Below are positions 9,001 to 15,000 of a stretch of 64,000 nt of DNA, piece by piece. Origin of the DNA: Escherichia coli (GTDB taxonomy: Bacteria; Pseudomonadota; Gammaproteobacteria; Enterobacterales; Enterobacteriaceae). The stretch is taken from the NCBI RefSeq assembly GCF_003991155.1, contig NZ_CP031297.1; one strand, 5' to 3'. The position numbers were made by a program. Within the stretch, counting starts at the first letter, position 1, and each line of letters opens with the position of its first letter.

Positions 9001-12000
9001 TTACCTTCGTAAGGGCAAGGAACTTGTTTGGTAATAACTGTCGCTGAGTAATCTTCGACACTTTCAAACCCATCGGGGCAACCATACCCCGACGGGGATG
9101 TTGCCCCTTTTTGCTTAGGAGCAACATCATGGAAATCGCTATCATCGCTTTGTGTATCCCTGCTGGTTGGGCAATCTCTCGTCCTTTCGTGAGAATCGCT
9201 GAATCGTTCGGTTACTGCTGATAGTCAACGCAAAGGGAGGGGGCAACCCCTCTCTTTCTGGTCAAGCCTCTGTGGCTTGTCCTCAAAGTCTTCTGGTGTC
9301 AGTTGGCTTTGACGACAAGCTACAGGGGGAATGTCGAATGCAACAGAATCTTCATGTTTACGACGATCACGCAGGCATCATCTATCTGGCTGATGGACGC
9401 GAGGTGAAATTTGATCCGAAACTGTATTCCAGCTCCTACCAGGCGCACAGTGAAGCAGTGAAGTGGGCCAAAGAAACCGGGGTCATTGGTCAAAACGACG
9501 ATGTGGTGATGTTCGTCCATTGAGGGAGTAGCCTCCAGGAGAGGCTACTCTCCTCGCTCCTTAAAAGTCTTCTTACTCATGGTGAATACCATCAGTAAGC
9601 AGATTTTGTTCTCTTCGGAGAGCGAAAAGTGCGATAGCTGGTCGCCAAAAACAAACAGCAAATTAACGTTAATTTACTAGCCCAACCGGGCGCATCCGCC
9701 CGGTTCGGGACGTGGTGCGCCTGTCACAATAGGAGCGCACCTATGTCTCAATACTCTCAATTCTCAGTAAGCAAGGTTTTCGGTATGCCCAGCATTCCGG
9801 AGAAGGTAACGGCCATCGGCTACGCTGACGGTTCAAACCCTTTCATCCCTGCCACTGATACCAACTACGTTTTCCGCAAAGAGTTTCTGCGAGAGGTCTT
9901 GGCCTATCTCAAAGAGCCTGGCGGTGACGCATTGTTCGTAACCGGCCCTACCGGGTCTGGCAAAACCTCAGGTATCACCGAGATCGCTGGTCGTCTCAAC
10001 TGGCCTGTTCAGCAAATCACTGCCCACGGGCGGATGGAGCTGACAGATCTGATTGGACATCACGCTCTGGTCGCGGAAAAGCCTGGTCAACCACCTGTCA
10101 TGAAGTTCATGTATGGACCTCTGGCAGTCGCTATGCGTGAAGGTCATCTGCTCCTCATCAACGAGGTGGATTTGGCCGACCCTGCCGAGCTGGCTGGTCT
10201 CAACGATGTCCTTGAAGGGCGTCCCCTTGTGATCGCTCAGAATGGCGGGGAAATCATCAAGCCGCACCCGATGTTTCGTGTGGTCGTTACTGGTAACTCT
10301 ACGGGGTCCGGTGATGCTTCTGGTTTGTACCAGGGGGTGATGATGCAGAACCTCGCAGCTATGGATCGCTATCGTTTCACCAAAGTAGGGTATGCGGATG
10401 AGGAAGCTGAACTCAGCATTCTTGGCCGTGCTACTCCGAAACTTCCGGAAAATGTGCGGAAGGGAATGGTTCGGATTGCTAATCAGGTCCGCAAACTGTT
10501 TCTTGGCGAAAACGGTGAAGATGGTCAGATCAGCGTCACCATGTCCACTCGGACGTTGGTGCGTTGGGCGAAACTGTCTCTAGCGTTCCGTGGTGCCCCA
10601 AATGCTCTTGAATACGCCTTGGATCAAGCTCTGCTTATCCGTGCGGCCAAAGAGGAGCGTGAAGCCATCCTGCGTGTTGCGAAGGATGTGTTCGGGGACC
10701 AATGGCGCTAAGAGGTGACGCATGAAGAAAAATGACTGTTTGTGCCGTCGTTACACTGCTAAAGAGTGGGGCAATGACGAAACCACAATAGAAGTCTTCA
10801 TTGGCTACAAGTTGCTCCGGGAGCCCAGCTCCTCGGAGCCAGGCCAATTCACGATGGTCGAGCTACGCCGAACCGTCACTGATGGGAAAGCTGAAAATTG
10901 GTCTGAGACAAAGCTCGAAGGACCTTTTGAAGCTAACGGCCCAGACACGATCCCAATGTCCTACAAGGACAAAGAAAGCCAGTATGTGTCACAGTTTCTC
11001 AGCCAGGGGTACACCTTTCTGGATGAGGTGCTGGTAAACGCAGAGACACAGACGGTGCTGGAAGGGGGGAATGTTTCAGCCGGACAAACAGCCAGCTTGG
11101 GATCTCTCAACTGGCTGTTATCTCCGCCCTCTGAGTTACCTCCAGGTGACATAAACCTCTTCAAAGGTTTTGTTGCTGGGGTTTTTGCCAAAGGAGCCGG
11201 TTTAATCGGCTTTGAGGTTGCTCGGAGCGAAGGCTCAAATGACTTGCTACCCAGTGTGCTGATGCGTACTGACAGCGGTTATGAGCTTGGGGTTAGCACT
11301 GGACTAGGCGAAAACACTATCCATCCAGCTACGCTGGAAGGCGCTGGTGAACTCCGCCCGGAACATGGTCACAAACCCCTGCTGATGTTGGTTTACCTGC
11401 AACAGCGTTTCGCGGATGACTTTTCAAACGTAGAGAAGCCGCTGGTGGCATTCTGTGATGAACAGGGTGATACCTTCGACTACGAGCGTTTTGATTCACT
11501 AAAACCCCTCATTGAACGGTTTGGTTTCAGCTACGACGAAGTAAGAGCAGATGCAGAAAGGCTTGGCCTTGTATCTGAGCTGATTCGCCTGGCAGAGATC
11601 GACGCCGAACAAGAGGATCACTTTTTTTAACCCTTACGGGGGCTTGCTCCCCGAAAGGGGCGTTGGCCCTCTCCAAATAACTTGGAGGTCATGATGTCTA
11701 AAGGCGTCAACAAAGTAATTCTGGTCGGTAATCTCGGTTCTGACCCGGAAATTCGCTACATGCCAAGCGGCACTGCCGTTGCCAACTTCAACGTTGCAAC
11801 AACGGATACGTGGCGCGATAAGCAGTCTGGCGAGCAAAGAGAGCATACTGAGTGGCACCGTATTGTGCTTAAAGGTCGTTTGGCGGAAGTCGCTGGTGAG
11901 TACCTGAAAAAGGGCTCCCAAGTCTATCTCGAAGGGAGCAACCGCACCCGGAAGTGGACTGACAGCCAACAAATCGAGCGCTACACCACCGAAGTACACT

Positions 12001-15000
12001 GCGTTGAAATGCAGATGCTTGGTGGTCGTGGAAATGCACCTCAGGACAACTCTCAACGTGCAGCGCCCCAAAAAGGGCAACGTACAGGAGCCGGTACGCA
12101 ATCTGCTCCTGTGCAGCAATCAGCACCGCAAGGTGGTATGGGCGGAGGCTATGGTCCCGCTCCTGATGGCTGGGATGATGACATCCCGTTCATGCGGCTG
12201 CACCACTTGGCTGGCGGGTAACACCGCCAACTCTTACTAAACCCCACGGGGGCACTCATGCCCCGAGGGGGTCATGGTGTCCTCAAACCGTTCATTCGTG
12301 AATTGGAGAAACACCATGTCTGATAACAAATCTCTTGTAACCCGTATCGCAAGCCGGTTTGGCGTGGACACCCGAAAGTTCTATGAAACTTTGAAGGCGA
12401 CCGCATTCAAGCAGCGAGATGGAAGTGCCCCGACCGATGAGCAGATGATGACGCTCCTGATCGTGGCTGAACAGTACGGTTTGAACCCTTTCACTCGGGA
12501 AATCTATGCGTTTCCTGACAAGCAAAATGGGATCATTCCGGTAGTAGGTGTTGATGGTTGGAGCCGCATCATCAACGAGCATCCCCAGTATGATGGCGTC
12601 GAGTTCGTGTATTCGGACAAGATGGTCAGAATGCAGGGGGCGAAAGTTGACTGCCCTGAGTGGATTGAATGCGTGATTTACCGTAAGGACAGATCTCGCC
12701 CTATCCGCATCAAGGAGTTCATTGATGAGGTGTACCGTGAACCGTTTCAGGGTCAAGGTCGCAATGGTGCTTACACTGTTGATGGCCCCTGGCAAACGCA
12801 CACCAAGCGTCAACTCCGGCACAAGTCGCTGATCCAGTGTTCTCGTGTCGCATTTGGTTTCTCTGGTATTTATGACCAGGATGAAGCTGAACGCATCCGT
12901 GAAATGGAGCAGGCATCGGCCATTAACCCGGCTATTGCCAATCTCCCTTCACCATCTCAAGTTCAAAGCCAAGAGCCTTTGGCTATTGAGCACAAAGAGC
13001 TTGACCCGATCCTAACCAAACTCGCAAATCGCGCCATTGCTGAAAACGCATGGTCTGCGGCGCATGAGTATGTGAAGGGACGGTATGAAGGTTCGGAACT
13101 GCAATATGCGACTCAATTCCTTCGTGACAAGGAGATGGATCAAATGGAGCCTCCGAAACCTGACTACCAGGAAGCGCACGAGCAAGAGTCCGCCGCTGGT
13201 GGTTCTGCAAATGCTGAACCTGGTGCCGAAGAAATGCCGCCTTTGAGTGACGAGGACATGATCCCTGTTACAGAAGAGGAGGGCGCGGAAGGCAGTTACT
13301 ACTAACCCCAACGGGGGGGACTCCCCCGCTGGGGGAGATCTCCCTCCTAACCATTGGAGAGAGGTCCATGAAAATAGTCAACCTATCGCAACGCGAGGAA
13401 GATTGGCTTGATTGGCGGCGTCAAGGTGTAACAGCCACTGACGCCGCTATCCTGCTCAATCGGTCTCCGTACAAAACACGATGGAGACTGTGGGCCGAGA
13501 AGACTGGGTATGCGCGTGAAGTCGATCTGAGTCTTAATCCGCTGGTTCGCCGGGGGATAGAAAACGAAGATGCTGCAAGACGCGCTTTCGAGGAGAAGTA
13601 TGATGACATGCTGCTCCCCGCCTGTGTCGAATCGGTTCAATACCCGCTCATGAGGGCCTCCCTGGATGGCCTGAGAGATAACGGGGAGCCCGTCGAGCTG
13701 AAAAGCCCGAGTGCGACTGTCTGGGAAGATGTTTGTGCTGAGAAAGCAAACAGCAAGGCATACCAGCTTTATTACCCGCAGGTGCAACACCAGCTCCTGG
13801 TAACGGGGGCCAAGCAAGGCTGGTTAGTCTTCTACTTTGAAGGTCAGATTCAGGAGTTTCCAATACTCCGAGACGAAGCCATGATTCAAGAAATCTTGGC
13901 CGAGGCTAAAAAGTTCTGGCAACAGGTAGTAGACAAGAAGGAGCCCGACAAAGATCCAGAGAGAGACCTGTACATACCGCAAGGTGAAGAGGTCAACCGT
14001 TGGATTGCTGCTGCTGAGGAATACCGCCTCTATGATGCAGAGATTCAGGAGCTGAAACAGCGACTGTCTGAGCTTCAAGAAAGGCAAAAGCCTCATCTCG
14101 ACACCATGAAGTCCCTCATGGGGGAATACTTCCATGCCGACTACTGCGGTGTGATGGTAACGAGATACAAAGCGGCTGGCCGGGTAGACTACAAAAAGCT
14201 GTTGGCTGATAAGGCGTCAGGCGTGAAGCCTGAGGATGTTGACCAGTACAGAGAGAAGTCATCAGAGCGGTGCCGTGTAACGGTTACTGGCTCTGTGAAG
14301 CCACGGTACATTGTTGATGAGGACGTGCTTGCTCCTCTTGATGATTTGCCGGAAGAAGTAGAGACGTTCTACTGGTGAGTGGGGGATTTTCCCCCGCTTT
14401 CCCTTGGGGATTCTGGGAGTCTCCAACGGAAAGCAAGATTTTGTTCTCTTCGGAGAGCGAAAAGTGCGATAGCTGGTCGCCAAAAACAAACAGCAAATTA
14501 ACGTTAATTTACTAGCCCAACCGGGCGCATCCGCCCGGTTCGGGACGTGGTGCGCCCCCAACTTTTTGGAGTGCATCATGACTAAAGTGAACCATCTACA
14601 AAGCCTCTGTGTTATCCACGTAGACTTTGACATCTGGAGTGGACAAACCCGTTTGTCTGCATCTGATCTCAAGCTGGGCGAGGGTGGTGAAATTCCACCT
14701 GAGAAAGTAGCTCAACTGGGAAGTAAGAAGATCTGTGATCCGGCTAAGCTGAAAGGCTTTCATCGCCTGAAAACAGAAACTCGTCGCCTCCTGCTGAAAT
14801 TCGGTATGCCGTTCATGAACGGATTTGCCGTACCCGTCAGCAAGACCGATGAAATCTGTAACAAGCTGAATGACATCAACTTTCAGTTTAACCAACTGAA
14901 ACAGGATTTCATCAAAGGTTACAACAAAGCCGTGGATGAATGGTGTCAGGAGAACCCTGAGTATGAACGAGCTATCCGTGCCGGAGCCCTTCCAAAGGAA

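Follow-up and report, generated by a model that had tools for sequence, protein, structure and literature searches.

The ssb-bet-exo module encoded in the window (the entire 64,000-nucleotide stretch of Escherichia coli contig NZ_CP031297.1 that was analysed) most likely, with a probability of roughly 93%, repairs an incoming IncC plasmid that has been cut in the recipient, acting independently of RecA through annealing of repeats in the plasmid backbone. Judging by IncC identity, gene order and domain content, the three genes are vcrx091-093 of the IncC hde (host defence evasion) operon, and the function is transferred from experiments on identical or near-identical IncC plasmids. Our own analysis established what the genes encode, their folds and catalytic residues, and the IncC setting; it also found the repeats and a natural deletion that runs from one repeat to another. 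The module has already been characterized in IncC resistance plasmids; the annotation is correct, and the biology is not new.

ORF calling confines three contiguous + strand ORFs exactly to positions 11691-14378, in full agreement with the preliminary description of a contiguous, co-directional set of an SSB, an annealing protein and a YqaJ-type exonuclease:

11691-12221, + strand: ssb (assigned to vcrx091), 176 aa, OB-fold SSB (Pfam SSB, E = 6.5e-37; NCBIfam TIGR00621)
12316-13305, + strand: bet (assigned to vcrx092), 329 aa, Red-beta-type single-strand annealing protein (Pfam RecT; NCBIfam bet_lambda)
13368-14378, + strand: exo (assigned to vcrx093), 336 aa, lambda-Exo/YqaJ PD-(D/E)XK nuclease (Pfam YqaJ; NCBIfam TIGR03033)

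The start and end coordinates of all three coincide with RefSeq CDS boundaries in identical plasmids (the mechanical ORF start of bet is at 12274), and the family scores are far beyond chance, with SSB, RecT/bet_lambda and YqaJ/lambda-exonuclease all above the curated Pfam and NCBIfam cutoffs. A total of 715 plasmid records share the 2.9-kb segment 11600-14500 at 99% identity or more, and among the matches listed the identity is 100%. The location on a conjugative backbone is borne out as well: traN lies upstream of the operon, and typing of the identical plasmids that were examined gives IncC, MOBH and MPF_F. The order of the genes, namely, an AAA_5+CbbQ_C ATPase, a domain-less protein, SSB, RecT, YqaJ and then vcrx094, matches the published description of vcrx089-093.

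The exonuclease is predicted to be a lambda-Exo-type 5'-to-3' dsDNA exonuclease. It matches Pfam YqaJ (E = 3.8e-26) and the NCBIfam lambda-exonuclease family TIGR03033 (133.8 bits; cutoff, 68). A phmmer search of Exo against PDB sequences yielded no match; hhalign aligned it with lambda Exo at a probability of 97.5, and the predicted fold (pLDDT 90) matched lambda Exo 3sm4 in Foldseek (E = 3.7e-11, probability 1.0), as well as 1avq (lambda Exo) and LHK-Exo (probability 1.0). Residues D100, E110 and K112 align with D119, E129 and K131 of lambda Exo and are invariant in 36 homologues. The nuclease domain (residues 1 to ~190) is followed by an extra C-terminal part that consists of a helix (207-251) and a small beta domain (256-306), and the protein ends in ..EEVETFYW.

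Bet is recognized by Pfam RecT (E = 4.4e-28) and by the NCBIfam bet_lambda equivalog (88.8 bits; cutoff, 76.95). Its predicted architecture starts with an N-terminal domain (1-197), joined by a flexible linker to a C-terminal domain (229-276), after which comes a disordered acidic tail with YY as its last residues. The N-terminal domain shares 54% identity with lambda Red-beta over residues 6-196 (Red-beta residues 7-180), and Bet matches PDB 7ujl both in sequence (E = 2.8e-57) and in fold (Foldseek E = 1.2e-14). The C-terminal domain of Red-beta binds lambda Exo and the SSB tail. The C-terminal domain of IncC Bet, confidently predicted in the structure model as three helices, shows no detectable sequence similarity to it in hhalign (probability 0.2), and the Bet model found no match to 6m9k in Foldseek. 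The SSB (TIGR00621, 169.6 bits; cutoff, 54) has its OB-fold at residues 6-110 by Pfam. It is an accessory, not essential, component; some relatives lack it.

These assignments place IncC Bet and Exo in the Red-beta and lambda-Exo branches, respectively, rather than with RecET. The N-terminal domain of Bet has the Red-beta fold, and Exo shares the fold and the D/E/K catalytic residues of lambda Exo, although with ~140 additional C-terminal residues; the mechanism that IncC would share with lambda Red is 5'-to-3' resection followed by RecA-independent single-strand annealing. RecET of the Rac prophage and other such pairs follow the same two-component logic of an exonuclease and an annealing protein, but RecE is only a distant structural match to IncC Exo (3h4r, E = 1.4e-3), and the fold of IncC Bet resembles that of RecT from Listeria phage A118 weakly (7ub2, E = 1.6e-3). 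The term lambda Red-like, used in the preliminary description, holds for a related set of SSB, annealing protein and exonuclease but not for a complete Red system: lambda Red has gam, whereas the IncC module instead has a dedicated ssb. No neighbouring protein matched the Gam family of host nuclease inhibitors in Pfam or NCBIfam, and according to the literature both IncC and SXT elements lack gam. Furthermore, lambda Red resides in a phage, whereas the IncC module is carried by a plasmid, with its expression under the control of the conjugation activator. Given the homology to phage genes and the annotation 'phage recombination protein Bet' in public records, the three genes could be taken for an inactive relic of a captured prophage recombination module. 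However, the three reading frames are intact, the catalytic residues are invariant, hundreds of plasmids carry the sequence with 100% identity, and synteny is kept in distant conjugative elements at 50-79% protein identity; the published deletion phenotypes in pVCR94 and pKAZ3 already refute the relic explanation, which has next to no probability left.

The functional unit exceeds the three genes and is probably an AcaCD-dependent operon of ~9 kb (~8.5-17.8 kb), with ssb-bet-exo in the middle:

8503-8515, + strand: AcaCD-like activator box GCCCAAAATGGAC, one mismatch to GCCCNDWWWGGGC (pattern search); predicted control site of promoter P087
8549-8554, + strand: predicted -10 hexamer TATATT, read from the sequence
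8714-9034, + strand: vcrx087 by position, first operon gene, 106 aa (RefSeq CDS in an identical plasmid)
9338-9523, + strand: vcrx088 by position, 61 aa (RefSeq CDS)
9743-10711, + strand: vcrx089-type AAA+ ATPase, CobS-like (Pfam AAA_5 and CbbQ_C)
10722-11630, + strand: vcrx090-type protein, 302 aa, ending in ..EQEDHFF
14578-15855, + strand: DUF3150 protein (vcrx094 by position; Pfam DUF3150, E = 4.4e-91), ending in ..DDDGDYFF
15940-17736, + strand: VWA/CobT-like protein, 598 aa (Pfam VWA and CobT), with conserved synteny; last gene of the predicted unit
17753-17782, + strand: strong hairpin resembling an intrinsic terminator, with a T-rich run after its 13-bp stem; predicted operon end

The pattern search of the window found no perfect AcaCD motif upstream of the operon; the sole perfect box in the window, at 3884-3896, is upstream of traN. 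Transcription probably starts near 8561, ~47 nt after the AcaCD-like box, given the -10 reading and the published box-to-start geometry, in which the AcaCD-protected region begins at -42, 4 bp downstream of the motif (Durand 2021, PMC8373056). AcaCD directly activates bet/exo (Carraro 2014), and RT-PCR on pVCR94 placed vcrx087 and bet on one transcript, with an RT primer in vcrx094, such that the DUF3150 gene is co-transcribed with the module (Roy et al. 2020, PMC7498323). Between 8300 and 18300, the + strand has no long-stem terminator-like site other than the hairpin at 17753-17782, and no strong internal terminator was found within the operon. Putative hairpins that would sequester the ribosome-binding site precede each gene. 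An Rfam search of 8300-18500, which covers these hairpins and the structured repeats described below, returned only a chance-level snoRNA match.

The 106-aa protein has no significant Pfam match and the 61-aa protein has no Pfam match, and the vcrx090-type protein matches neither Pfam nor NCBIfam. The vcrx089-type ATPase, which is similar to NCBIfam CobS (E = 3.6e-30, under the family cutoff), has been described as the anti-type-I-restriction partner of Vcrx090 (Roy 2020, PMC7498323; 2024 pKAZ3 study, NAR 2024). Besides these two, the rest of the operon includes the DUF3150 protein, whose synteny with the module is conserved, and the VWA protein, a possible partner of the CobS-like ATPase.

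The position of the operon among transfer genes, beside traN and under the transfer activator AcaCD, might suggest that the module serves conjugative DNA processing or replication, for example by protecting or recircularizing the strand that is transferred, or in replication restart; SSBs are typical of early-entry functions, and the literature mentions a role of lambda Red in lambda replication. This is very improbable: deletion of ssb through exo had no effect on the transfer of the untargeted plasmid, TnSeq depletion was seen only in the Cas+ recipient (PMC7498323), and IncC plasmids found in nature without the module are nonetheless typed as conjugative. That wild-type and deletion plasmids are equal in transfer, establishment and copy number in defence-free hosts has largely been shown already.

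The genes from vcrx089 through exo are flanked by two copies of a structured repeat:

9592-9721, + strand: structured intergenic repeat, probably of the rptI family (repeat search; RNA fold z-score -4.5; no Rfam family)
14427-14556, + strand: second full copy (repeat search; RNA fold analysis)

Their 121-bp cores (9601-9721 and 14436-14556) are 100% identical, and the family numbers seven copies in the window, including these two. Tentatively, the repeats in the window are the published rptIa-f; the published deletion sizes fit copies at ~8583, ~9627, ~18294, 22.0-22.2 kb and 31.7 kb only on the assumption of a constant ~600-bp insert. The natural plasmid pSNE2-2012K-0663 carries an exact 4835-bp deletion between the two 121-bp copies, which could equally be a product of RecA. 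We also considered the structured repeats as Frpo-like single-strand promoters and set this aside, as they form several short hairpins and not one long promoter-forming hairpin.

The RecA independence that had been proposed for the module agrees with the published experiments on the same operon in pVCR94 (Roy, Huguet, Grenier, Burrus, NAR 2020, PMC7498323) and pKAZ3 (NAR 2024), and the suggested test of recombination in a recA host has in effect been performed in the pVCR94 work (PMC7498323). TnSeq and deletions in pVCR94 reduced the transfer of a protospacer-bearing plasmid into a Cas+ recipient by 6- to >200-fold, complementation was effective only in the recipient, and deletion of recA in the recipient did not affect the transfer of the CRISPR-targeted plasmid (PMC7498323). 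In the 85 rescued plasmids that were sequenced, 11 scar patterns occurred, and every one was a deletion between repeats (rptI-IV), with repeats as short as 7 bp used (PMC7498323). In pKAZ3, deletion of vcrx093 increased EcoBI restriction 426-fold (NAR 2024). [quoted passage not shown]

The likely course of events is as follows. Once the plasmid enters the recipient, the operon would be expressed there, activated by AcaCD from the promoter upstream of vcrx087. When CRISPR-Cas or a restriction enzyme cuts the incoming DNA, Exo would resect both ends of the break in the 5'-to-3' direction, the exposed 3' single strands would be coated by the plasmid SSB, and Bet would anneal complementary copies of the short direct repeats scattered in intergenic regions of the backbone; we infer this order of loading. 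The circle would be restored without RecA, with the loss of the DNA between the repeats, including the targeted site. Recombination that forms hybrids or mosaics would be a side effect of the same repair activity.

A different emphasis, close to that of the preliminary description, is that the module mainly generates diversity, that is, hybrids and mosaics of related elements or of backbone repeats, with repair being secondary. The backbone does contain many repeats, and a natural repeat-to-repeat deletion exists. However, IncC plasmids are mutually incompatible and excluding, so that partners seldom share a cell; tandem arrays of ICEs are unstable, and none have been found in nature; and deletion of the module has consequences only for a plasmid that is cut. 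Moreover, because complementation works only in the recipient, escape does not stem from diversity pre-existing in donors. We therefore regard this alternative as unlikely, and in the view of the authors of the pVCR94 study, too, diversity is a by-product (PMC7498323). As for the proposal that the module explains the mosaicism and the identical repeats, the first part finds support in the hybrid elements created by the homologous SXT/R391 genes, as cited in the pVCR94 study (Garriss 2009), but the repeats are substrates of the module and probably not its products.

The closest known counterpart of the module in the window is hde vcrx091-093 of pVCR94 (and also pKAZ3), which belongs to the same plasmid family and has the same gene order, Pfam assignments, intergenic repeats and upstream AcaCD-type box; no substantive difference was found in this comparison, which was made by gene order, domains and IncC identity. 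[quoted passage not shown] CRISPR evasion was shown for R391, which behaved as pVCR94 did (PMC7498323). SXT-Exo (338 aa) is a Mn/Mg-dependent exonuclease that forms a toroidal trimer and degrades dsDNA processively in the 5'-to-3' direction; it shares with IncC Exo both the long architecture and the Asp100/Glu110 numbering. Nevertheless, SXT/R391 is an integrating element and IncC is a plasmid, the published identities between their Bet and Exo proteins are 59% and 45%, respectively (PMC7498323), and the SXT/R391 elements lack the IncC repeats rptI and rptIII. Among the search matches for Bet, homologues of 272 aa lack the long acidic, di-aromatic tail of IncC Bet. We take these shorter homologues to be of the SXT type.

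The module is one reason why IncC plasmids, which are major vehicles of multidrug resistance, cross host barriers: it would let the plasmid survive CRISPR-Cas and restriction cuts upon entry by sacrificing the DNA between repeats. Such survival would broaden the host range and limit CRISPR-based strategies for plasmid removal.

Several features of the operon are small leads for specialists: conserved C-terminal tails, an SSB with a capped tip, and hairpins that may gate translation. An acidic stretch followed by two aromatic residues is conserved at the C-terminus of four proteins, namely, Bet, Exo, Vcrx090 and the DUF3150 protein, and the ..EQEDHFF tail of the vcrx090-type protein is kept in orthologues. 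These tails resemble the DDDIPF tip of SSBs, and the plasmid SSB's own DDDIPF is capped by a conserved extension. Most SSBs among the search matches end in DDDIPF; in the plasmid SSB, the motif (residues 162-167) is not the free C-terminus and is followed by the 9-residue extension MRLHHLAGG, which is kept in the closest homologues. It is conceivable, if rather doubtful, that the tails are a shared docking motif that assembles anti-defence and repair proteins on one hub, and that the capped SSB avoids recruiting host nucleases; we found no mention of this idea in the cited literature. Candidates for the hub are the VWA protein, the plasmid's own SSB and those host proteins to which the SSB tip normally binds, and if this reading is true, the capped SSB would keep host nucleases off the incoming DNA.

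Three contiguous ORFs, all on the + strand, make up the module at 11691-14378:

11691-12221, + strand: ssb, 176 aa (Pfam PF00436, E 6.5e-37; TIGR00621 above cutoff)
12316-13305, + strand: bet, Red-beta-type annealing protein, 329 aa (Pfam RecT, E 4.4e-28)
13368-14378, + strand: exo, lambda-Exo/YqaJ nuclease, 336 aa (Pfam PF09588, E 3.8e-26)

The mechanical ORF call places the bet start at 12274 and RefSeq at 12316; the RefSeq start was used for the 329-aa product. Bet is 54% identical to lambda Bet over residues 6-196, matches the N-terminal domain of lambda Red-beta (PDB 7ujl) with a phmmer E of 2.8e-57, and scores 88.8 bits against the NCBIfam bet_lambda equivalog (cutoff 76.95); Exo reaches 133.8 bits against TIGR03033 (NCBIfam; cutoff 68). 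Both ends of the module coincide with annotated CDS boundaries in identical public plasmids. The ORFs, profile scores and matching boundaries thus bear out the preliminary description of an SSB, an annealing protein and a YqaJ-type exonuclease that are contiguous and co-directional. The setting on a conjugative backbone is likewise correct: traU and traN lie upstream, and the plasmid records that were opened are typed as IncC, MOBH and MPF_F. Across 715 plasmid records, from hosts that include Klebsiella, Escherichia, Salmonella, Vibrio and other genera, this 2.9-kb segment shows at least 99% identity, and all of the best matches are at 100%.

The module, ssb/bet/exo (vcrx091-093), belongs to the host defence evasion (hde) operon of IncC plasmids and is already known in detail. 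Roy, Huguet, Grenier and Burrus (NAR 2020, PMC7498323) described the operon, and their series of domains (AAA_5 with CbbQ_C, no domain, SSB, RecT, YqaJ) is the same as the one found here. In their TnSeq experiments, insertions in vcrx089-093 were depleted only on entry into a Cas+ Vibrio cholerae recipient (PMC7498323). Deletion of ssb, bet or exo lowered the transfer of a protospacer-bearing plasmid by 6- to more than 200-fold and left the transfer of an untargeted plasmid unchanged (PMC7498323), which makes a function in conjugative processing or replication the weaker explanation. Deletion of recA in the recipient had no effect, and 85 sequenced rescued plasmids fell into 11 scar patterns, every one a deletion between rptI-IV repeats, with one pattern relying on just 7 identical bases (PMC7498323). 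Mutants in bet and exo of the ICE R391 behaved in a like manner (PMC7498323). Independent work in E. coli with the IncC plasmid pKAZ3 showed that deletion of vcrx093 raised restriction by EcoBI 426-fold and, to a lesser extent, restriction by EcoAI, EcoRII and EcoRV. Bet and Exo of SXT have been reported to support recombineering, and AntiDefenseFinder includes the profiles vcrx089_090 and vcrx091_093. The RecA-independent recombination that the preliminary description attributed to the module is therefore borne out by the IncC work (PMC7498323), and the recombination test that it proposed had already been carried out, with the predicted outcome; its finding is real and correctly interpreted, yet was known in detail beforehand.

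The best-supported account of the module is one of plasmid repair. Upon expression of the operon in a new host and cleavage of the plasmid by a host nuclease, the ends would be resected 5' to 3' by Exo, the 3' single strands would be coated by SSB, and complementary copies of a repeat would be annealed by Bet. The circle would thereby be restored without RecA, at the cost of the targeted site and of the DNA between the two copies. The present analysis covers the identities of the genes, their folds and catalytic residues, the context and the repeats; what the module does in cells comes from published work on this operon, and we infer the order of protein loading (Exo, SSB, Bet). That the module is a dedicated generator of diversity is a weaker proposition, given that IncC plasmids seldom co-reside and that the module matters only once the plasmid has been cut. 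An inactive phage relic is ruled out by the conservation of the genes together with the deletion phenotypes.

Candidate substrates for such repair are present in the window as a family of intergenic repeats, whose copies reach about 130 nt and stand where gene clusters begin:

near 8583, 9592, 14427, 18259, 22673, 26490 and 32712, one orientation: intergenic repeat copies (repeat search)

The repeats fold as several stable hairpins (z-scores of about -4.5 to -5), matched no family in an Rfam search, and probably represent the published rptI family. The 121-bp copies at 9601-9721 and 14436-14556 are 100% identical and flank vcrx089 through exo. In the natural IncC plasmid pSNE2-2012K-0663 (NZ_CP025245; 3101-3222 of the locus), exactly 4835 bp, vcrx089 through exo, are lost and one repeat copy is left, while the flanks are unaltered and the plasmid is still typed as conjugative. 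Recombination of one identical copy with the other would be expected to yield this very deletion, which parallels in nature the laboratory scars, even if RecA could equally account for it. As to the proposal that the module may explain the identical backbone repeats, these are its substrates; nothing points to their being its products.

The functional unit extends beyond the three genes:

8503-8515, + strand: AcaCD-like box with one mismatch (pattern search)
8549-8554, + strand: TATATT hexamer, predicted -10, read from the sequence
9743-10711, + strand: CobS-like AAA+ ATPase upstream of the module, corresponding to vcrx089
10722-11630, + strand: domain-less protein upstream of the module, corresponding to vcrx090
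14578-15855, + strand: DUF3150 protein downstream of the module
15940-17736, + strand: VWA/CobT-like protein downstream of the module
17753-17782, + strand: strong terminator-like hairpin, the sole strong one on this strand in the region scanned

In the published promoter geometry, the region protected by AcaCD begins at -42, 4 bp past the motif, and, applied to the box found here, this puts the transcription start at about 8561, directly after the TATATT hexamer. This start and the terminator-like hairpin together predict a single transcription unit of about 9.2 kb, in agreement with RT-PCR in pVCR94, which spans vcrx094 back to vcrx087 (PMC7498323). According to Carraro et al. (2014), bet/exo are under the direct control of AcaCD, the master activator, which switches them on. 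Two other AcaCD-like boxes with one mismatch occur at 18152-18164 and 29553-29565. A short conserved sequence common to both (repeat family D8) comes after each, and the boxes are probably where the promoters of the following backbone operons lie.

The genes vcrx089-090 are a published anti-type-I-restriction pair, and that anti-restriction work is limited to the ATPase and Vcrx090. The ATPase and the VWA protein look like a classic AAA+/VWA pair. A CobS/MoxR-like AAA+ ATPase, a CobT-like VWA protein and the DUF3150 protein are linked in every related locus that reaches far enough downstream.

All intergenic regions of the operon share an apparent design in which, by RNA folding, a GC-rich hairpin right past the stop codon is followed by a hairpin that pairs with the next gene's Shine-Dalgarno sequence or start codon:

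9524-9742, + strand: two-hairpin intergenic region
11631-11690, + strand: two-hairpin intergenic region
12222-12315, + strand: two-hairpin intergenic region
13306-13367, + strand: two-hairpin intergenic region
14379-14577, + strand: two-hairpin intergenic region

Roy et al. note such a structure for vcrx089 only (PMC7498323). Upstream of exo, 6 of the 7 diverged loci folded (L005-L010 in our numbering) have the same design built from other sequences, and this recurrence in distant elements suggests selected translational gating or coupling.

The operon gene order beside traN is kept in conjugative elements of Marinobacter, Comamonas, Pseudomonas luteola, Eoetvoesiella and Pseudoalteromonas and in one metagenomic contig, with Exo proteins that are 50-74% identical. 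Across these elements the module itself varies. RadC occupies the place of ssb in one locus (L009, 7403-7900) and another (L011) lacks ssb, in agreement with an accessory role of SSB. In a third (L010; 4159-5604 and 8527-12618), the module is split by inserted genes for a chemoreceptor and a DNA methylase and by an integrase-type gene.

A search of PDB sequences with Exo gave no match. A predicted model built from 36 homologues (mean pLDDT 90) matches lambda Exo (3sm4, 1avq, 6m9k) and LHK-Exo (3syy) over the first ~200 residues with probability 1.0. Lambda D119, E129 and K131 correspond to Exo D100, E110 and K112 (BLASTP and hhalign; hhalign probability 97.5), all invariant across the family alignment. 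The published work on SXT-Exo, a trimeric, Mn/Mg-dependent dsDNA exonuclease, names Asp100 and Glu110 in the same numbering. Unlike lambda Exo, the IncC protein has a conserved C-terminal extension (~205-336; 13980-14378), modelled as a 45-residue helix (207-251) and a small beta domain (256-306); the extra length of the 338-aa SXT-Exo has been remarked on previously. The mimivirus Cas4-like protein R354 aligns with Exo over about 300 columns. In the Bet model, residues 1-197 form a confident N-terminal domain. It matches 7ujl (E 1.2e-14) and, less strongly, RecT and Rad52. After it come a linker predicted to be disordered, a three-helix domain modelled with confidence (229-276), for which no homology to the Red-beta C-terminal domain was detected, and a disordered acidic tail. 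In contrast to lambda Red (gam-bet-exo), no Gam-like protein was found among the neighbouring proteins with Pfam and NCBIfam.

Four of the nine operon proteins end in an acidic stretch and then two aromatic residues: Vcrx090 in EQEDHFF, Bet in EGAEGSYY, Exo in EEVETFYW and the DUF3150 protein in DDDGDYFF. For this count, P is about 2e-7 by a simple binomial estimate. The tails are kept in diverged orthologues although the linkers before them are not conserved, and 95 of 109 full-length Exo homologues have one. They resemble the DDDIPF tip of SSB and may constitute a shared docking motif. One more backbone ORF, at 21626-21949, has an ending of this kind, EELEDFYF. In the plasmid SSB itself (residues 162-176; 12174-12221), DDDIPF is followed by MRLHHLAGG and so is not C-terminal. 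This extension, MRLH[HP]L[AE]GG, is kept in the closest SSB homologues (56-99% identity); most SSBs in the homologue search terminate at DDDIPF, other subgroups carry different extensions, and the SSB profile matches stop at residue 167.

Farther along the window, at ~37000-63000, base composition shifts sharply, with blocks of 58-68% GC alternating with 37-40% GC against about 51% in the backbone; an accessory or resistance region probably lies here.
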